The position numbers and the translations under genes are program-made. The notes below the pieces were generated by a model, which saw only the letters and a list, made by a program, of their open reading frames with translations, made no database searches and had not been told where the DNA came from. From an uncultured Actinomycetota bacterium (GTDB taxonomy: Bacteria > Actinomycetota > Actinomycetes > Mycobacteriales > Mycobacteriaceae), in contig CAWCMF010000026.1 in the NCBI GenBank assembly GCA_963796545.1, positions 135,209-199,208 on the forward strand: a stretch of 64,000 nt of DNA. The letters are read 5' to 3'. Below are positions 14,997 through 24,939 of this stretch, piece after piece (the stretch's first letter is position 1; the number at the start of each line of letters is the position of its first letter).

Positions 14997-15084
14997 CTGT
15001 TTTTCGCTCCTCGCGTGAGGTTGGCACCACCTTAGACTGGCCCGTGCGGCGAAACTGTAGTGACTCTAGGAACCCGAGACTGGT

Positions 15085-16118: not shown

Positions 16119-19100
16119 TCACGCCATGGCGTCGGCTTGCGCCAGATATCCCTCGAACTCGGCTGCGAGCGCCTTCTTCCGAAAGCCTGCCAGGAACTGC
16201 TCGTAGGCCCGCTCGTCTCCGCTGCTTCTGGCAAGGAGTGCCCGTAACCGCAGAAGCGGCAGTTCGTGCAGTACGAAGCCGGGCTCGGTCGCCACGGCGC
16301 AGAGCCGGTCTATAGCTCCGTGAGCTTCGTCGATGTCGTGTTTCGTGCCGCGACGAAGTAGCGCCTCACCCAGAACTGCGGTGGCAGGGCCGCGAAAGAT
16401 CATCTCGCCGTTGGCGAACTGCTCCTCGAGTACCTGGCGCGCCAACGCGACGGCATCGTCAAGCTCGCCTGAGCTGAGGCTTGCCCGGGCGAACTCGAGA
16501 TCGGTAAGTCTTCGCAATGTCACGGTCAGCTTCTCGCGAACGATCATCTCGCGCGCTGCGGTCAATGCTTCGATGCCTGCCTCCTGGTCACCCTGGGGGC
16601 TGTGCAGCAATGCCATCGCCCGAATCATGTGTGAGTAGGTGACGGCGGTGTTGTCCCCCGACTGTCGCGCGATCGCCAGCGACTCCGATGTCAACGAGAT
16701 GTCTTCGGCATCAGGCAGGATGGCGTCGTTTCCCGCCGCACCGGCGAATTTGTACACTTGTGCCAGAATTCGGGTTGTGGCGTCGAACGCCCGCGCCATC
16801 TCGATGCCCCGTTCGATGTCGGCTCGCCACCCTGGGCGGCCCAGGAACATCGCTGATGCGCCCCTCAAGGTGATGGCCCAGGCGAGTGGAGACCCGATAA
16901 CGAAGTTCCCCATGACGGGGTCACCGTCCGCGAGGTCGATGATGCGCTGCGCCAACCGCAGGCTTTCGACCGCCTCGCCAGCCTCCCAATTGGCCTGAGC
17001 CGCCCCGTAGAGAAGGCCCACGGCTATCTCCGGCTCTCCAATCGACTCGACCAATGCCGCGAAGTCAGACGCCGTATCTACTGCTTCCCGGTGGCGCGAA
17101 TTGAACGTCAGCGTGTTGAGGTGGCCGGCCATACCCACCGCCAGCGACTTCTTGTCGCCGGCTGCGGTCGCGATTGAACGCAGCTCTTCGAAGCCTGTGC
17201 TCTCTGGAACTCCACCCACTTGAAAAGCACTGCCGCACAGAAGAGCCCGCGGTGAGATCCGCATCGCCAGATAGTTGGGATGGTCCTCTGACATCTGGTC
17301 GGCAACATTCGCGGCCTGTTCCCAGCTTCCGCGTGCGGCCCGGATGTCGCGCGGCCCGTACCCGGTCGCGGCTCGCATGAACCATTGATGTGCGTCCGGC
17401 AGCTCACCCGCGGCCGCGTATTGAGTTGCAATCATGGCTGCGCCCTCACTGGTGGCGGCGGCATTCGTCTGCCGCATCATCGCCGCTACACGCCGGTGCA
17501 AGTCCGCGCGCGCGGACTTGAGCTGCGATTCGTACGCCACTTTCTGAGTGAGCGGATGGTGGAAGGCATACTCGGCATCGTCTTCGTCACTGACCTGGTC
17601 GACGAGTTCTGCCGTGATGAGTGGCGTGAGGTCCGCTCGATCCAGCAATCGCTCCAACAACGCGGCATGAAATCGAGCTCCGATGACCGATGCGGCGTTC
17701 AGCGTCTGTTTCGCCGAGTGGCCGAGCCGGTCGATACGGTCACCGATCGCAGCCTGGAGAGTGGGTGGTACATGGACATCGCCTACTTGTCGAAGACATA
17801 CGTAGGCGCCGGGATTGCCTTCGATCTCTCCACGCTCAGCCAAATCGCGCACGATCTCCTCGGCGCAAAAGGGTATGCCCGCCGCGCGGTCGGCGACCAG
17901 CGTGGACAGGTTGCCCACCGACGAATCCGATCCGAGTAGTTCGTCCAGCAACTCGCCGATGCACGAATCACTCAGCGGTGCCAGCGCGATAGGTTTGGCC
18001 TCGACCAACGCTGACAAGGTTCCCTGGTACTCGGGGCGATACGTGATCAACATAATTGCCCGCATTTGACCGATGGCTGCGGCGAATTCGGTGAGCATCG
18101 ATTCGCTTACGCCATCTATCCAATGGGCGTCCTCGATGACAAAGACAGCAGGTTTCGGCCGCGCCAGCGAGACTGTGTTGATGAGTTCGATGAGCCGCCG
18201 CCGCCGCGCGTCCGGGCTGATGTCTGGCAGCGACACTTCGGTATCCCGGATGCCGAGCAGCTCATCGAGCAAGAGCAGGTCCTCGGCATCGGTGAGAGGC
18301 ATGGCGGCGCGCAGCCGTGCCCGGGCATCCGCTGCTGTGAGACCGCCGATTGCGAAGAGCGCGCGCGAGAGTCGTGAGATGACGTGGAATGAGATCTCCC
18401 GGGTGTGCGATTCGCAGTAGGTGTAGTACACCTCAAAACCACGATCTGTCGCCGCCGCAATTGATTCGCGTACCAACCGCGTCTTTCCAACGCCCGGCGG
18501 CCCTGACACGGTGACTACAGATCCGACGCCTGCAAGCGCATCGTCCAGGATCGTCGAGATTGCTGTCGTCTCCGCCTCGCGGCCTACCAGGCGGGAGGGC
18601 CCACGAGACACCCGACGGTCAGCTGACGCGGATAGTAGACGACGCGCCCGCACTGCTTTCGGTGATCCCTTGATGCGCACGAATTCTCTTGTGCCCAAGG
18701 CGAAATTGCACTCAACGAGGCTGGCGGTCGACTCGCTCAGCATTACCCCGCCCGGTGGCGCCACGGACTCCATGCGTTGAGCCATCCCGACTTGCTCGCC
18801 AACAGCGGTGTAACCAAAGGACCCCGATCCGATCTTGCCGACAATCACCTCACCGGAGTTCAACCCGACTCGAAGTTTGAGGTCGATACCGTCCCGTTCA
18901 TGAGCTGCGAGCGCAAGTGGCCGCGCGCCCCCTTGAATTGCCAGGGCGGCGAGACAAGCACGAACAGCGTGGTCCTCCAAGCCCGCGGGTGCGCCGAACA
19001 CCGCCATGATCCCATCGCCGGTAAAACTGCCGACTGTGCCCCCGAAACGCTGTACAACCCCCGCGCAGACGTCCGCCAGTTCGGCCATGATCTCGCGTAG

Positions 19101-19286
19101 CCGCTCGGCGCCCACCACTGCTGCGATGTCCATCGAGTGCACCACGTCGGCGAATAAGATCGTGACTTGCTTGTACTCGGCCGACTGGGGGGCCTGCGTG
19201 AGTCGGGTGCCGCACTCGCTACAGAAGTTGCCCGTCGGGCTGGAGTGCGCCCCACAGGAACCACAGATTATTCGGGGTGCGGTCAA
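16119..19286 (-). CDS. Zinc-ribbon / class III nucleotide cyclase / AAA (STAND) / TPR-like protein
   Basis: CGSCG..FCSECG, ILFADVVHS, FTGDG, RVGLNSGEV, GPPGVGKT, VIEDAHW, AAGIPFCAEE. TTG start inferred. Confidence 0.9.
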   Translation of the reverse strand: MTAPRIICGSCGAHSSPTGNFCSECGTRLTQAPQSAEYKQVTILFADVVHSMDIAAVVGAERLREIMAELADVCAGVVQRFGGTVGSFTGDGIMAVFGAPAGLEDHAVRACLAALAIQGGARPLALAAHERDGIDLKLRVGLNSGEVIVGKIGSGSFGYTAVGEQVGMAQRMESVAPPGGVMLSESTASLVECNFALGTREFVRIKGSPKAVRARRLLSASADRRVSRGPSRLVGREAETTAISTILDDALAGVGSVVTVSGPPGVGKTRLVRESIAAATDRGFEVYYTYCESHTREISFHVISRLSRALFAIGGLTAADARARLRAAMPLTDAEDLLLLDELLGIRDTEVSLPDISPDARRRRLIELINTVSLARPKPAVFVIEDAHWIDGVSESMLTEFAAAIGQMRAIMLITYRPEYQGTLSALVEAKPIALAPLSDSCIGELLDELLGSDSSVGNLSTLVADRAAGIPFCAEEIVRDLAERGEIEGNPGAYVCLRQVGDVHVPPTLQAAIGDRIDRLGHSAKQTLNAASVIGARFHAALLERLLDRADLTPLITAELVDQVSDEDDAEYAFHHPLTQKVAYESQLKSARADLHRRVAAMMRQTNAAATSEGAAMIATQYAAAGELPDAHQWFMRAATGYGPRDIRAARGSWEQAANVADQMSEDHPNYLAMRISPRALLCGSAFQVGGVPESTGFEELRSIATAAGDKKSLAVGMAGHLNTLTFNSRHREAVDTASDFAALVESIGEPEIAVGLLYGAAQANWEAGEAVESLRLAQRIIDLADGDPVMGNFVIGSPLAWAITLRGASAMFLGRPGWRADIERGIEMARAFDATTRILAQVYKFAGAAGNDAILPDAEDISLTSESLAIARQSGDNTAVTYSHMIRAMALLHSPQGDQEAGIEALTAAREMIVREKLTVTLRRLTDLEFARASLSSGELDDAVALARQVLEEQFANGEMIFRGPATAVLGEALLRRGTKHDIDEAHGAIDRLCAVATEPGFVLHELPLLRLRALLARSSGDERAYEQFLAGFRKKALAAEFEGYLAQADAMA

Positions 19287-19403
19287 TGCGCCGCCCCTCT
19301 GGCGTCCACATCGATATCGTTCCACCGCTGGTTGACGCTGTCCGCCATATGGTCCGACCCATCTTCGACGCGAAGCGCCGAGGCCCAGTCCTAAACTGGC
19401 GGC

Positions 19404-19523
19404 GTGGCGAAACTGCAGTTAGTTCAGGAACCCGCGGCCGACGCGCTGCTGGAAACCAACCCGTTTGCGCTGCTGGTCGGCATGCTTCTCGATCAACAGG
19501 TGCAGATACGATTGCAACTATGA
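19404..19523 (+). pseudogene. Host 5' stub of the HhH-GPD (Rv1156-like) gene, at attL
   Basis: Hand translation VAKLQLVQEPAADALLETNPFALLVGMLLDQQ/VQIRLQL*, paralogous to the N-terminus at 23865. TAAACT -10 box 6 nt before the GTG. Confidence 0.85.
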
Positions 19524-19701
19524 GAACGCAAGCTCTTCGCGCTCTCGTTGGCGCTCGGGTTTCGGTAGTCCAAGGGCCACAGAAGGTCTCGCATCTTGCC
19601 AGTTAGAGACCACTACAAAGTGGGCAGAGGCCAAGGGATACAAGATCGTTGGGTCATTTGAGGATGTCGGCGTGTCTGCCGAGAAGCGGCCAGAGGACTG
19701 A
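19520..19701 (+). pseudogene. Truncated large serine integrase N-terminus
   Basis: MRTQALRALVGARVSVVQGPQKVSHLA/QLETTTKWAEAKGYKIVGSFEDVGVSAEKRPED*. Catalytic ARVS and ED.GVS motifs. Frameshift near 19598. Confidence 0.85.
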
Positions 19702-19950
19702 CCCGACAGCCGGCACACTGGGCCGGCCCCGACCCGTCGGAAAGAAATCGGCGAACATCGCATCCGGGAACAGCTCGCGCCGATGCGCCGCCAAGAACGC
19801 AAACACGCTGCCCGCCTTCAGAAGATGCTCCGCTACCGACTCCGCATCCAGCAGCTCACGCTGACTAACCGATCGACCCTGCACACCGAAATCATTGCCA
19901 AGAATCACCACCAACACGCTGACCGCCACGCGGATTATTCAGGGCACTCT
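19702..19950 (-). mobile_element. IS remnant (IS1182-like): left end plus transposase N-terminus
   Basis: VQGRSVSQRELLDAESVAEHLLKAGSVFAFLAAHRRELFPDAMFADFFPTGRGRPSVP from GTG 19884. It breaks off at the integrase junction. Confidence 0.7.
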
Positions 19951-19977
19951 AAGGGTCGTAGTCGTCGCACACACCGG

Positions 19978-20709
19978 TCAAGATTCGGGGTGGGTGAGGG
20001 TTGCGGTCAGGCCGGGGAGCAGCAGATCGAGGAAGCGGTCGAGTTCGGCGGCGCCGTCGTAGGAGGCTAGGACCGGTGCCAGCGCGCGCAGCACAGGGAA
20101 TTCGGTGATCGCGAGTCGGTGCAGACCGAGCCGCAGTACATCCTCGGTTTCCTCGGGTCGCTCGATGACCTCCTGCAACTCGTTGAGGACATGGCCGTAC
20201 AAATAGCCGAACAGCACCCGGTAGATGTGTAGGGCGTCATCGCCGGTGAACCCGACGGATGTGAGCAGCGCGAGGACGTGTTCTAGTGGCCGCAGCATTC
20301 CCGGTGGCCGTTGCCCGAGCGGGGTGGCCAACGGCCGAGTGACCAGCAGCGGTACCACGTTCGGGTGCGCCAGGGCCAATTGGCGGAAGTCGCGCGCGAC
20401 GGTGCGCAGTTGGCCGGCCCAGTCCGGGTCTTCGGTGTCCACGTGTAGTTTCCCGAGCACAATCTCGGCGACGCCGTCGAGCACCGCGGCCTTGCTCGCG
20501 ACGTGCCGGTAGAGCATCACCGGATCCCGGCCCAGTGCGACGCTGAGGCGGCGCATGGACAATCCGTCCACCCCGGCGCTGTCGACGATGTTCAGCGCAG
20601 CCTGCAGGATCATCGACCGGGTGAGCTGACCGTTGTTTCGGCGGGCGGCCGCGACAGACGGATCACCGTCGTCAGCGCCCGCGTCGGGCCCGGTCGGATG
20701 TCTCGTCAT
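19978..20709 (-). CDS. TetR family regulator with TetR_C domain
   Basis: GLSMRRLSVALGRDPVMLYRHV HTH, DWAGQLR, HPNVVPLL. Confidence 0.9.
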   Translation of the reverse strand: MTRHPTGPDAGADDGDPSVAAARRNNGQLTRSMILQAALNIVDSAGVDGLSMRRLSVALGRDPVMLYRHVASKAAVLDGVAEIVLGKLHVDTEDPDWAGQLRTVARDFRQLALAHPNVVPLLVTRPLATPLGQRPPGMLRPLEHVLALLTSVGFTGDDALHIYRVLFGYLYGHVLNELQEVIERPEETEDVLRLGLHRLAITEFPVLRALAPVLASYDGAAELDRFLDLLLPGLTATLTHPES

Positions 20710-20787
20710 TGCACGCAGCACTTCCCCTCAGCCTCGTCATCGAAGCACTCACCATTCGAAGGTCAACACCAGGCTTCAACGATGTAA

Positions 20788-20813
20788 GTCAACACTGTAT
20801 TAACAGTGTTGAC
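20788..20813. promoter_or_regulatory. TetR operator in the divergent intergenic region
   Basis: Perfect 11-bp inverted repeat GTCAACACTGT-ATTA-ACAGTGTTGAC, with an extra half-site GTCAACAC at 20762. Confidence 0.75.
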
Positions 20814-20867
20814 ACTAGCCTTTTTGGGGCGTGTAATAAAGATCTAGCACCAGATCAGAGGCTCGAC

Positions 20868-21320
20868 ATGATTGTCACCGTTGGATTAGTCGTTCTCCTC
20901 GTCGCCGTGATCGTCGGGTTCACCGGGATACTGACCAATGCGGGGGCCGCTCACCCGTTGACCGAGAACTTCGCCGTATTCGGCTATCACGTCACCGGGT
21001 CGACCGGCACTTTGTTCCTCGTCGGGATCGTGGTCGGCGCGGTGGCGATGCTGGGTCTGAGCCTGTTGCTGGCCGGTGCTCGGCGCACCGCGGGCCGTGG
21101 GCGCGACGCCCGACACGAACTCAAGAGGTCCCAACGCGAAACGGCGTTTCTGAACCAGGAGCGCGACTATCGGCTCGAACACCAGCAGGCCGGCGCAGCC
21201 ACTGGCTCACCGGTGACTTCGCAGGGGGCTACCACCCGCGGCAAGGGGTTTTCCCGGTTCGGTCGCTGGTCGCGCGGTCGACAACCGACGGGCACCGCGC
21301 GCGTGGACGGACCCCGGTAG
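20868..21320 (+). CDS. Hypothetical 2-TM membrane protein
   Basis: MIVTVGLVVLLVAVIVG...TLFLVGIVVGAVAMLGLSLLL, followed by a basic tail. Confidence 0.75.
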   Translation: MIVTVGLVVLLVAVIVGFTGILTNAGAAHPLTENFAVFGYHVTGSTGTLFLVGIVVGAVAMLGLSLLLAGARRTAGRGRDARHELKRSQRETAFLNQERDYRLEHQQAGAATGSPVTSQGATTRGKGFSRFGRWSRGRQPTGTARVDGPR

Positions 21321-21394
21321 GCACCGACCCCGGTCGAATTCTGTCAGCCCGCAGTCGCGGCCTCTGACCACCGAAAACGAAGGAGAATCCCGCA

Positions 21395-21568
21395 ATGAGT
21401 ATCGGTAAGAAGATCGCCCACAAGGCCGAGGCCGCCAAGGGCGCCACCAAGAAGTACTTCGGCCGCGCCACCGGCAACACCCGGCTGCGCACCGAGGGAC
21501 GCGTCGATCAGTTCAGGGGCAACACCAAACAGGCAGGAGACAAGGTCAAAGACGCCTTCAAACACTGA
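21395..21568 (+). CDS. csbD: CsbD family stress protein (not in ORF track)
   Basis: MSIGKKIAHKAEAAKGATKKYFGRATGNTRLRTEGRVDQFRGNTKQAGDKVKDAFKH*. AAGGAG RBS. Confidence 0.9.
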   Translation: MSIGKKIAHKAEAAKGATKKYFGRATGNTRLRTEGRVDQFRGNTKQAGDKVKDAFKH

Positions 21569-21664
21569 CCCGGCAACCCGGCCGACAACGCTGACATCGG
21601 CCGCGACCAAGTCTGATCCCGCTTATCTGTTCCCCTACATCTGCCTCGAAACGAGCTAAACGCC

Positions 21665-21820
21665 ATGATCATCCTTGGAATCATCCTCATCATCGCCGGA
21701 TTCCTGCTCAAGATCTCCATTCTCTGGACCATCGGGCTCATCCTGCTCGTCGTCGGCTTGGTACTGATGGTCATGGGAAGGACGGGACGCGCTGTCGCCG
21801 GCCGCCGCCACTACTACTAA
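21665..21820 (+). CDS. 51-aa membrane protein (DUF6131-like; not in ORF track)
   Basis: MIILGIILIIAGFLLKISILWTIGLILLVVGLVLMVMGRTGRAVAGRRHYY*. Confidence 0.82.
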   Translation: MIILGIILIIAGFLLKISILWTIGLILLVVGLVLMVMGRTGRAVAGRRHYY

Positions 21821-21921
21821 CCAGCACACGCAACTAGCCGGCAATACGACGACATGATTCGCCGCCCCCGCGAATTACCCCTTGGCCGCCCGTGGCCGCC
21901 GAGTATCCAAGGAGACACATC

Positions 21922-22122
21922 ATGCGTTTCGTAGGGCTACTGGTGATCGTATGGCTGATCGTGGGCGCATTCGCGGCCTACCAGCGCGGGTATTTCACAA
22001 ACGCCGCACAAAACTGTGCCAGCGCGGGGACGGTCGCGGTGACCGTTATCGCGGGACCACTTAATTACGTGGGTGTCAATCCCAAAGTGACGGATTGTCA
22101 AGTGCCGCAACCCAGTCCATAA
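21922..22122 (+). CDS. 66-aa membrane/secreted protein with two cysteines
   Basis: MRFVGLLVIVWLIVGAFAAYQRGYF...GPLNYVGVNPKV. AAGGAG RBS. Confidence 0.8.
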   Translation: MRFVGLLVIVWLIVGAFAAYQRGYFTNAAQNCASAGTVAVTVIAGPLNYVGVNPKVTDCQVPQPSP

Positions 22123-22185
22123 AGCCCACAGTTCAATTCCAACCGATTTGAACCTCGACCTGCTCAACCAATCCAAGGAGCCGAC

Positions 22186-22587
22186 ATGACTACCAGCAGT
22201 ATCGTTTTGATCGTCGTCGTTGCGATCGCCGCAATTCTACTTATCGCCGCAATCACGTGGGCGGCGCGCAAGAAACGCAACCAACACCGCCACGTCGAAG
22301 CTGACAAGATCCGCGAGTCCGCCAAGGAGGAAACACTGCAGGTTAAGCAGCGCGAAGCACTGGCCGACGAGACCGCGGCCAAGGGCCGCGCCGCCCAGGC
22401 CGAAGCCGACGTCAAGGCGGCCCAAGCCTCAGGTCTGCAACAGCAAGCCGCCGCGCACCGCAGCGAAGCAGTGACCTCCCGTGATCAGCTCAACGAGCAG
22501 CTGGACCGCGCGGACACGATGGATCCGGCCTCGCAGACACCCGAAACGCCTCGGACCGCCAACCGCAAGGAACACCAGGAGCATTGA
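22186..22587 (+). CDS. Membrane-anchored coiled-coil protein
   Basis: N-terminal TM followed by an Ala/Glu/Gln-rich helix. AAGGAG RBS. Confidence 0.8.
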   Translation: MTTSSIVLIVVVAIAAILLIAAITWAARKKRNQHRHVEADKIRESAKEETLQVKQREALADETAAKGRAAQAEADVKAAQASGLQQQAAAHRSEAVTSRDQLNEQLDRADTMDPASQTPETPRTANRKEHQEH

Positions 22588-22778
22588 CGGCCTGCGGGCA
22601 ATGCCCGCCCCCGCTACCTCGACTGCGTCTTACCGCGGCAGCACCGGGCTACTCACTGCTTCGGTAGGTAACGCCTGAGAGTGCGTGCCGCGTTGGCCGC
22701 GTTCGCCGCCGCCGAGAAGGCGAATATCTCGCACAGGATCGGGCCATGATGCATCCGGCCGGTTAGGAGAGGCCCGCA

Positions 22779-23594
22779 ATGTCTGACCACGCGTCGGCGT
22801 CCACCGCGACACAGATCGCCCAAAACAGCGTGTTCGAACGATTCGCCCGCGCCGGGTACGTCGTGAGCGGCCTACTGCACCTGACGATCGGCTACCTCGC
22901 CATCCGGATCGCCCTCGGCGTCGGCGGCGGCACCGCTGACCAATCCGGGGCACTAGCGGCGTTGGCAGCCAAACCGTACGGCATCGCCGCGCTCTGGGCC
23001 GCCGTGGTCGCGCTTGTGGTGATGGGGCTATGGCGACTCGTCGAAACAGCCCTCGGTCGATCGACCGACCCGAAATCCCAAGGCGCATCATCGGAAGTCT
23101 TAGATCGGGCGAAGGCCTTCGCGCTGGCGGTGGTCTATTTCGCGTTCGCATACTCCGCGTTCGGATTCGCCCGAGGTGCCGGAAAGTCCACTGGGGAGCA
23201 GAATTCGGATATCAGCGCACGCCTGATGCAGACCGACGCTGGCACGATCGCACTCATCGCCGCCGGCATGATCATCATCGCGGTCGGTGGATATCACATC
23301 TACAAGGGAGCCAGCCGCAACTTTCTCGACGACCTCAAAGGCCGCTCCAGCGACCTGGTGCGACGACTGGGCATGGTGGGCTACATCGCCAAGGGCCTGG
23401 TCATCGCCGGTGCCGGGGTGCTGGTCATCGTCGCGGTGAGTCGTTCGGAGCCCAATACGGCCACCGGCCTCGACGGGGCCCTGAAAACCCTCGGCGCCCA
23501 GCCCTACGGAGCAGGGCTCCTGATCGCCGCCGGGATAGGAATCATCACCTACGGCCTCTACAGCTTCGCCATGGCGAGATACACCAAAATGTAA
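22779..23594 (+). CDS. DUF1206 multi-pass membrane protein
   Basis: ARAGYVVSGLLHL, ADQSGAL, GYIAKG, GLDGALKTLGAQPYG repeats. Confidence 0.88.
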   Translation: MSDHASASTATQIAQNSVFERFARAGYVVSGLLHLTIGYLAIRIALGVGGGTADQSGALAALAAKPYGIAALWAAVVALVVMGLWRLVETALGRSTDPKSQGASSEVLDRAKAFALAVVYFAFAYSAFGFARGAGKSTGEQNSDISARLMQTDAGTIALIAAGMIIIAVGGYHIYKGASRNFLDDLKGRSSDLVRRLGMVGYIAKGLVIAGAGVLVIVAVSRSEPNTATGLDGALKTLGAQPYGAGLLIAAGIGIITYGLYSFAMARYTKM

Positions 23595-23864
23595 GTGTGT
23601 CTGGCGATTCAGCCACGGGCGGGCACCCCCGAGGACTCTCAAGAGGATGCTAAGAGCTGTTGATTTCACCGACGAGTGCGGCACGCTCAACTCCTCGCCG
23701 ATGTGATCCGTCAGATCGGCCACGACGAGCGGGCCGGGTAGGGACTTGCGCTGGCTACGGTTCCAGGTTGGTCAACGGGCCCGCAGGGGTCCGCGGATAG
23801 ATCCCTTCCGGTCGCGCGGATGCAGGCGGAGTCGCCTCGTTGGGGTAGCACGTAGGCTCCATTT

Positions 23865-24449
23865 ATGACTGCGAAGCTGTGCCTGGCCCAAGATCCCGAG
23901 GCTGACGCGCTATTGGAGTGCAGCCCGTTTGCGCTGCTCACGGGCATGTTGCTTGATCAGCAGATCCCGATGGAGGTGGCGTTCGGCGGCCCGAAGAAGA
24001 TCGCCGACCGGATCGGCAGCTTCGATGCGCGCGTGATCGCGGACTACGACCCGGAGGCGTTCGCTGCGCTGTGTGCGCAAACGCCTGCGGTGCACCGCTT
24101 TCCGGGCTCGATGGCCAAGCGCGTGCAAGCCCTCGCACAGGTCGTCGTCGATGAGTACGGCGGCGATGCGACGGCGCTGTGGTCCGACGGCGCGGACGGG
24201 CGGGAGGTGCTGCGTCGGCTCAAGGCGTTGCCGGGCTTCGGAGAGCAGAAGGCCAAGATTTTCTTGGCGCTGCTCGGCAAGCAGTACGGCGTCACCCCGA
24301 CAGGTTGGCGCGCGGCCGCCGGTGACTACGGCAAGGCGGGCGCGCACATGTCAGTCGCAGATGTGAAAGATCCGGGTTCGTTGCAGAAGGTGCGGACGTA
24401 CAAGAAGGAAGCGAAAGCTGCCGCGAAGGCCGCCAGGCCGGAGCCGTAG
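23865..24449 (+). CDS. HhH-GPD-type base-excision DNA repair protein (Rv1156-like), chimeric N-terminus
   Basis: GMLLDQQIPME, HRFPGSMAKR, LPGFGEQKAKIF. TAGGCT -10 box 6 nt before the ATG (leaderless). Confidence 0.92.
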   Translation: MTAKLCLAQDPEADALLECSPFALLTGMLLDQQIPMEVAFGGPKKIADRIGSFDARVIADYDPEAFAALCAQTPAVHRFPGSMAKRVQALAQVVVDEYGGDATALWSDGADGREVLRRLKALPGFGEQKAKIFLALLGKQYGVTPTGWRAAAGDYGKAGAHMSVADVKDPGSLQKVRTYKKEAKAAAKAARPEP

Positions 24450-24504
24450 ATGAAGAAGGCCGCCAGGCCGGAGCCGTAGATGAAGAAGGCCGCCAGGCCG
24501 GAGC
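24425..24504 (+). repeat. 30-bp tandem repeat, about 2.7 copies, spanning the stop codon
   Basis: GAAGGCCGCCAGGCCGGAGCCGTAGATGAA at 24425 and 24455, partial copy at 24485. Confidence 0.9.
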
Positions 24505-24546
24505 TCTCAGCGCCGAGACTGCTGTGAGATCACCGAACTCGGCGGA

Positions 24547-24939
24547 TCACGGTCTGGGCGCAGGCTCGCTGCGCGCCACATCGAGGCTCGCCAGGTCGGT
24601 GAGCACCTTGGCGACGACGCGTCCGGTGGAGGTGGCGGTGTCGAGGCCGTTCTGCAGGCAGCGAAGGGTGATGCCGCGGGTCGTGAGGTCGGCGACGGTC
24701 TGTGTCACTTCCGACACCGAGCGGCCCAATCGTTCGAGTGCCACCACGACGACGACGTCCCCGGAGCGGGCGTAGCTGAGCAGTGCGAGCAGTCCGGCGC
24801 GCATCTTGTCCGCAGAGCCCGTGGTCTTGTCGGTGAAGATCCGCCTCGAGTCCACCCCTGCGGCGGCGAGCGCGACGAGCTGCTCGTCGAGGTCGCCGCG
24901 GCCGCCGACGGCCGTCGCATAACCCAACGTCACCGTCAC
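24547..24939 (-). CDS. Resolvase-family protein, catalytic domain only
   Basis: LGYA..., RIFTDK, GDVVVVVALERLGRS, LDTATSTGR. No HTH, and YAT in place of YARVS. Confidence 0.8.
   Translation of the reverse strand: MTVTLGYATAVGGRGDLDEQLVALAAAGVDSRRIFTDKTTGSADKMRAGLLALLSYARSGDVVVVVALERLGRSVSEVTQTVADLTTRGITLRCLQNGLDTATSTGRVVAKVLTDLASLDVARSEPAPRP

Follow-up and report, generated by a model that had tools for sequence, protein, structure and literature searches.

The stretch of DNA analysed here, referred to below as the window, comprises 64,000 nucleotides (nt) of contig CAWCMF010000026.1 (GenBank assembly GCA_963796545.1) from an uncultured bacterium of the Mycobacteriaceae. It holds a gene of the HhH-GPD family whose 5′ end occurs twice, with the remains of a large serine integrase between the two copies. 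The left copy (19404-19499) and the right copy (23865-23963) form a 101-nt direct repeat with 71% identity and a spacing of 4464 nt, the biggest repeat within 19000-24600. Each copy is preceded at 6 nt by a TANNNT box, TAAACT (19392-19397) before the GTG at 19404 and TAGGCT (23853-23858) before the ATG at 23865. The left copy reads DQQ-VQIRLQL-stop, its stop codon (19521-19523) overlapping the integrase ATG at 19520, and the right copy runs on into the complete gene. A preliminary description of the window had reported the diverged duplication, the break of the left copy after DQQ and the position of both boxes, and all of these were confirmed. The locus is very probably the stranded remnant of a serine-integrase island whose target gene was kept by the island's own promoter and 5′ end, and whose right attachment (att) site was later deleted. 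Its features, in window coordinates, are as follows.

19392..19397, + strand: TAAACT, a −10-like box of host type, 6 nt before a predicted leaderless GTG start (from TANNNT placement in host alleles).
19404..19499, + strand: host-type 5′ stub (VAKLQLVQEP...DQQ), the B arm of attL (91% identity to genome G031; dyad symmetry).
19494..19499, + strand: attL core CAACAG, with the crossover likely at the CA of 19494-19495 (dyad symmetry).
19496..19519, + strand: P′ arm of attL (motif common to intact elements and phage Herbertwm).
19520..19705, + strand: remnant of a large serine integrase of the Herbertwm/Peaches/Bxz2 clade, about 62 codons, frameshift near 19601 (sequence comparison).
23828..23864, + strand: putative element-type promoter region including TAGGCT at 23853-23858 (near match to the promoter of the G254 element, locus L096).
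23865..23963, + strand: element-type replacement 5′ end (MTAKLCLAQ...DQQ; nt identity of 89% to the intact module of L116 and 86% to that of G172).
23958..23963: right junction, where the replacement 5′ end meets host sequence at CAGCAG; attP arm and duplicated codons absent.
23865..24449, + strand: complete chimeric HhH-GPD family gene, 194 amino acids (aa), putative DNA glycosylase of the MSMEG_5156/Rv1156 family (Pfam and AlphaFold2, AF2).

The integrase remnant, which is interrupted by an IS1182 fragment, has 80% nt identity to phage Herbertwm, and its two pieces share 88% and 64% aa identity with Peaches and 92% and 44% with Bxz2. It is nearest to the integrases of G169 (86-93% aa identity), G172 and G254. 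Its Pfam Resolvase match (E=0.004) is under the cut-off. A full-length integrase with resolvase-type catalytic and recombinase domains is absent from the window, the relatives being 516-559 aa long and that of G245 matching both Pfam Resolvase and Recombinase, and tblastn did not find the rest of the protein in genome G000 (66% complete). Inspection of the right junction found neither an attP arm nor a P-arm motif beside the right copy, so that attL is present and attR is gone. The earlier designation as a serine-integrase island stands, and is qualified by the reduction of the enzyme to some 62 frameshifted codons and by the missing attP arm. With a 4.5-kb remnant the island is no phage genome of about 50 kb with virion genes, and a Pfam scan of the window found no major capsid gene such as a PICI-like satellite, defined as integrase plus capsid (PMC10654092), would have. 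Soil DNA contigs of run X6 join 19490 to 23955 and 19495 to 23967 in an empty-site-like manner, with 85% likeness and possibly from other organisms.

Elements with a full integrase occupy the same codons in related genomes. N-terminus matches were scored in 399 other genomes of the genus, and the 39 genomes with at least two matches were fetched. A stub lies upstream of the gene on one contig in 28 of these; in four (G139, G254, G295, G351) the two are split over contigs, and seven (G004, G008, G085, G131, G262, G402, G420) were dropped as frameshifts, extra full copies or unclear. In five of the 28 (G086, G169, G172, G184, G245) a full integrase follows the stub directly, and G254 has one on a separate contig; the intact elements for which the preliminary description had proposed a search were thereby found. 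The right end is built alike in all six, with a promoter box, about 49 replacement codons and a linker, followed by a second QQ and the host gene. The replacement codons end in IP(M/L/F)ExAFxGPKKIADR and extend 17 codons beyond the crossover. As elements with a full integrase carry a MTxKLCLAQ-like 5′ end with a promoter box at the same codons, the earlier proposal that a replacement promoter and 5′ end are borne by the element is upheld. That proposal foresaw the swap of promoter and 5′ end and missed the in-frame attP arm, the 17-codon duplication and the later loss. Judged by sequence, these are 5′-restoring elements, with an element-borne promoter and an in-frame replacement N-terminus, together called the module below.

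The linker is a phage-type attP arm kept in frame; its length is 24, 30, 33, 36 or 42 nt, always a multiple of three, and at its end stands the motif that phages Herbertwm and Backyardigan have ahead of the attP core. In four elements and three phages the att arms show symmetry around the CA of CAGCAG, and a very short shared core (CAGCAG/CAACAG) with symmetric attP arms is what is expected of a serine integrase. The position of the crossover is fixed independently by a 320-bp contig of G086 (C77:1-320; L107), because it joins host DQQ directly to a P′ arm and integrase residues 1-70 that are 100% identical to Herbertwm; the stub before them is host-type.

The integrated gene is whole, with an insert of 25-33 residues, in 11 DNA loci. 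A DNA-pattern scan of 185,579 genomes gave 12 attR-like matches, ten with an in-frame module, none with a module out of frame and two without a module; five of the 12 represent loci that had already been fetched, and the number is a lower bound because the scan missed the known positives G172 and G184. The duplicated codons differ by 0.16, 0.06 and 0.46 per site at codon positions 1, 2 and 3, and since the changes are mostly at third positions these codons behave as protein under selection. The duplication, with a spacing of 25-33 residues, appeared in 50 (strict) to 55 (looser) of the best 120 protein clusters, figures that are no frequency because the query itself contained the insert; among the 55 clusters, 47 have LCL/LWL-like starts, six PNLRL-like starts and one the LQL start of the host type. 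Intact elements are 7-18 kb long and carry primase-polymerase, resolvase and restriction or other defence genes (open reading frames, ORFs, of at least 150 aa were scanned), with a capsid gene in one of them, G086.

Further variants were seen around these elements. No replacement module accompanies the attR-like junctions of L122 and L123, which leaves the gene locally without its 5′ end; L122 has capsid, head-tail adaptor and primase genes and is satellite-like. Four other families of the order also have stubs that end, as here, at the LDQ motif; none of the stub loci fetched from them had an intact module. At L156 (G554:C49), in another genus, the full gene is followed by two extra copies of the post-DQQ part, and two stubs lie upstream. 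Integrases 67-71% identical over the N-terminal ~217 aa lie in L195 (G111) and L202 (G102:C5) behind the 3′ end of a different conserved gene, which may be trpD-like. The ATGA coupling of stub stop and integrase start was rejected as a rule of the family because it occurs in the window and G086 only, and not at the other attL junctions inspected.

The origin of the two copies in the window was assessed from uninterrupted genes. The best protein matches among 60 relatives, G031 and G001, have a single uninterrupted gene with a left-type start, which is the outcome that the preliminary description had named for an empty site. Over 87 nt the left copy has 91% identity to the G031 N-terminus and the right copy 71%, and for G001 the values are 86% and 67%, respectively; in the gene-body tree the body of the window gene is closest to G031. 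The best matches of the right copy among the fetched genes are the linker-bearing modules of L116 (89%) and G172 (86%), and its product differs from protein P0003 by one residue. On these comparisons the left copy is host-type and the right copy element-type, and the window gene is left with a foreign promoter-like box and 33 foreign first codons. These data also bear on the idea that the window island merely disrupted the gene, the right 5′ end having come later by recombination from the allele of another strain. LCL-type N-termini in single-copy genomes, the lack of a linker in the window and the mere ~37 nt of module-like DNA left upstream of the start would all fit such an event, but the two best matches of the right copy bear linkers, the window promoter matches the G254 module promoter and the integrase stub is nearest to the module-bearing G169, G172 and G254, which makes it very unlikely.

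A TANNNT box lies 5-8 nt 5′ of the start in 17 of 18 host-type alleles and 6-7 nt 5′ of it in 8 of 11 intact modules, where about 2% would be expected by chance in either case. The Mycobacterium smegmatis orthologue MSMEG_5156 has a mapped leaderless start, and the leader length of Rv1156 is 0 (PMC6448022). A sigma-70 scan found no full −35/−10 promoter. The module boxes probably act as promoters.

Several observations weigh against the scheme of island-borne replacement. Eight of 27 single-copy relatives, a score-ranked draw, have LCL/LWL-type N-termini, so that the condition under which the preliminary description would have abandoned its proposal, a MTAKLCLAQ N-terminus native to relatives, applies in part; similar starts also occur in genomes of other families. 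Because of both findings the LCL/LWL type alone is no proof of element origin, and because of the second it may be ancestral. (The tallies of the 60 relatives and the other families include G043, G521, G576, G588 and G664, on which no claim is based.) In a gene-body tree of 82 rows, a set enriched for islands, the N-terminus label needs 22 changes, at least 11 of them forced by well-supported branches, and the changes are no fewer than in shuffles (81 of 500 as low). The related genomes are not independent, and many loci were chosen for having islands. No circular form with attP plus module was found in scans of viral or metagenome contigs: the viral contigs gave one unrelated match, and the metagenomes gave none and then 12, none of them with integrase or module homology. 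Some single-copy LCL/LWL alleles are nevertheless likely fossil replacements, because G063, G082 and G151, three further genomes of this type, have about 1 kb of upstream DNA in common with island interiors.

The loss of the right att site is not peculiar to the window. Decayed islands, that of the window included, lack 81-99 nt between two CAGCAG copies and are mostly cut at the core. The linker is retained in all five same-contig islands with a full integrase vs one of the 23 without. The junction model used here classed 10 of 11 modules and 17 of 18 native alleles correctly in leave-one-out tests; the right junction of the window is host-like straight after CAGCAG (log-likelihood ratio −21), and among stub-bearing collapsed genes the switch to host sequence lies at most 6 nt from the core in 17 of 19. 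It could be supposed that the subfamily of the window never had a linker and used its replacement codons as the attP arm, since the junction is exactly at the core and 22 of the 28 same-contig islands have linker-less right ends. The attP-arm motif is absent before the right core, though, and no linker-less island has an intact integrase, that of G355 being frameshifted; we regard this supposition as highly improbable.

The attP arm could have been removed in two ways. In 8 of 11 modules the two repeats have their longest perfect run at +24 to +30, and for this reason plain homologous deletion should favour later junctions. Given that 17 of the 19 junctions lie at the core although the longest run is elsewhere, we lean to the integrase itself as the maker of the core cut that removes the attP arm, an action suggested by the attB-like copy held in the module. 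Homologous deletion or slippage between the repeats of about 57 nt, acting on the same element and module with no role for the integrase, is rather less probable. The repeats are 69-82% identical, and at least three collapsed genes (L081, L064 and L017) keep element sequence further in, which agrees with homologous deletion; in some collapsed genes, and likewise in P0117, element codons persist as far as +18, +24 or +33. That homologous exchange occurs here is shown by G330, G364 and G389, where stub and repaired gene have identical N-terminal coding. The perfect match at the 17 core-proximal junctions is, by contrast, just 2-8 nt long, and the longest runs lie elsewhere in the 8 modules. No doubled insert was seen among the 120 protein clusters; with this and the late junctions, homologous deletion is a real rival. 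In the same three genomes (L087, L089, L093) the N-terminal coding of stub and repaired gene is identical or nearly so and their promoters differ, which suggests gene conversion from the stub.

By our account, a serine-integrase island inserted at the Gln-Gln codons of the HhH-GPD gene would have supplied a predicted promoter and 5′ end, likely keeping the gene working. The integrated gene would be whole, with a 25-33-residue insert made of the in-frame attP arm and 17 duplicated codons, and these codons would shift the foreign linker out of the DQQ-IPME loop to a place behind the next helix. Likely deletion of the right att site would later make the swap permanent and strand the island. One possible route by standard reactions is that a second circle integrates at the attB-like copy of the module and excises with the outer attR. 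Whichever the route, loss of the segment would remove attR and rebuild an attB-like site at which further elements could integrate. Module-type stubs (G127, G172, G254, G102, G247) and tandem arrays (G106, G139, G195, G199, G254), triple in the first four, show such reuse of the site. In the G199 array (L084:3760-3960) the P′ arm of the following element comes immediately after a linker-bearing module, so that an attP-like junction lies within the array.

The tandem arrays in these five genomes also suit a different view of the module, in which it mainly serves the element, as an integrase promoter in the circle or a spare attB for tandem accretion, and gene restoration is a by-product; from the layout, the module promoter in the circle would face the integrase across attP. 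Against this, purifying selection acts on the module codons, the linker never leaves the reading frame and phages with the same integrase manage without a module, and we consider this view unlikely.

A wider form of the replacement account can be put forward only tentatively. The element's own attB in the replacement 5′ end may let the integrase excise the attP arm, and through repeated rounds a single DNA-repair gene may have had its promoter and its mode of translation start (leaderless vs Shine-Dalgarno-led) changed many times across Mycobacterium, including lineages without a visible island. Among 27 non-duplicated LCL/LWL-type alleles, 14 lack a TANNNT box, and in most of the 14 a purine-rich Shine-Dalgarno-like stretch takes its place (loci concerned: L017, L023, L028, L030, L031, L046, L049, L056, L059, L064, L068 and L173), for which reason replacement may change the mode of translation start.

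Phages with this integrase clade use the same target. Bxz2, Peaches and Herbertwm resemble the islands in integrase (55-80% aa identity), target gene and an attP that lies immediately 5′ of int and is centred on CAGC(A/C)G, whereas the module-bearing elements are islands of 7-18 kb. No part of the target gene is present in any of the 134 phage records with this integrase, and consequently these phages would disrupt their target. A tblastn search of 50,697 phage records with the whole protein (E≤1) and the 66-aa module (E≤10) gave no mycobacteriophage match to the module; a module search of plasmid records gave five matches, in records of other actinomycete genera. Bxz2 integrates in MSMEG_5156 (PMC2884959; PMC9262239). 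The preliminary description had likened the integrase and attB to those of Bxz2 and Peaches. Clade and target gene agree, and the attP centres of both phages are compatible with the DQQ codons, but the published Bxz2 core at 5,259,344-347 (PMC2884959), counted from the annotated start, falls at nt 154-157, which is about 60 nt too far downstream for DQQ and speaks against a common site. A site shared by the islands and Bxz2 is probable.

The target gene product has an HhH-GPD domain (Pfam PF00730, E=1.6e-8, above cut-off) and fold. Its AF2 model (mean confidence, pLDDT, 76.7) matches EndoIII/MutY-like folds, the top Foldseek matches NTHL1, MIG, EndoIII and MutY having probability 1.0 but E-values of only 0.005-0.03, and no relative of solved structure turned up when the PDB was searched by sequence. 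MSMEG_5156 is called a putative DNA glycosylase (PMC9262239). In the AF2 model of the insert form, pLDDT is below 50 over residues 32-71; because of this the model does not establish that the insert is tolerated, a further reservation about the scheme, nor does it tell which repeat fills the fold. The helix layout suggests that the duplication shields the DQQ-IPME loop by moving the linker behind the next helix.

Other features of the window lie within and beside the island:

15033..15076, + strand: older, decayed −10-like box TAGACT plus about 11 codons (77% over 44 nt, E=0.002; synteny with G024).
19707..19942, − strand: fragment of an IS1182-family transposase, the left edge of a secondary cargo block (sequence match; soil-run contig ends at 19707-19709).
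19978..23827, strand not assigned: cargo block (right edge 23827 from contig ends and a loose end), with a TetR regulator (19978-20721, − strand), then a membrane ORF, CsbD (21395-21568), DUF6131 (21665-21820), two small ORFs and DUF1206 (22779-23594).

The TetR/CsbD/DUF6131/DUF1206 block (19707-23827) has relatives on actinobacterial plasmids (Mycobacterium, Rhodococcus) and many partial soil-contig matches sharing its edges, and on both grounds it likely moves separately. The older copy at 15033-15076 is a third match to the gene's 5′ end and the second-best match within the genome, and the island-free genome G024 has its HhH-GPD gene at the corresponding place. From there to 19390 extend 4.3 kb of lower-GC DNA, absent from G031, G001 and G024, with a PNPOx-like ORF, a second ORF and an adenylate cyclase-AAA ATPase; this segment could stem from a previous round of the cycle proposed above, or else from an unrelated insertion accompanied by a short duplication. 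At 24425-24514, a 30-bp unit covering the last codons and stop of the gene has two exact repeats and a partial third, and a 130-aa resolvase-domain ORF follows 3′ of the gene (24547-24939, − strand), in DNA also present in G031, G001 and G024.

[quoted passage not shown] The mycobacterial islands differ from them in having a serine integrase and no tyrosine integrase, a 6-bp shared core and a foreign attP arm that lies in frame behind a 17-codon duplication and is later lost. Other islands are known whose attP contains a fragment that makes a tRNA or protein target whole again, and like those studied here they have a restored target and a site reusable in tandem. TG1 at dapC is a possible serine-integrase precedent, for which the literature search gave no paper. 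That many islands restore their target has been stated in general terms (PMC12884075). At dusA (IMEVchUSA3) and prfC the new promoter comes with a diverged N-terminus, which in the dusA elements has 61% identity over 35 residues and, unlike that of the mycobacterial islands, the native length (bioRxiv 10.1101/2021.06.18.448947). The streptococcal serine-integrase ICEs at rumA, mutT and hsdM and the Mycobacterium abscessus Int-S prophages are likewise large serine-integrase elements with protein-coding targets; all 29 of the former are described as disrupting, those at rumA swapping 3′ ends with the target (PMC4701971), and all three sites of the latter as disrupted (PMC8092301), and the parts of these papers available describe no 5′ promoter module. 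Nor is the module mentioned in the available parts of PMC10654092, PMC10083194 and PMC3029335, and the literature searched gave no description of a serine-integrase version with in-frame att arm, duplication and collapse. This widespread mycobacterial island family is a variant of a known strategy, in which the in-frame attP arm with a selected duplication as buffer and the core-exact collapse are new.

Serine-integrase elements have been described as disrupting protein targets because their attP arms share almost nothing with attB. The family described here would get round such disruption by keeping the attP arm in frame, buffered by a duplicated and selected piece of the target. The integrase clade and its target can already be handled in M. 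smegmatis (Bxz2, Peaches). Integration vectors would profit from an attP that leaves its target gene undisrupted. The trace of these events, a stub before an intact gene, is present in at least 28 of the 399 sampled species. Mobile elements could thus replace the promoter and N-terminus of a core gene permanently and repeatedly, and such swaps would mislead the annotation of 5′ ends and the comparison of promoters.

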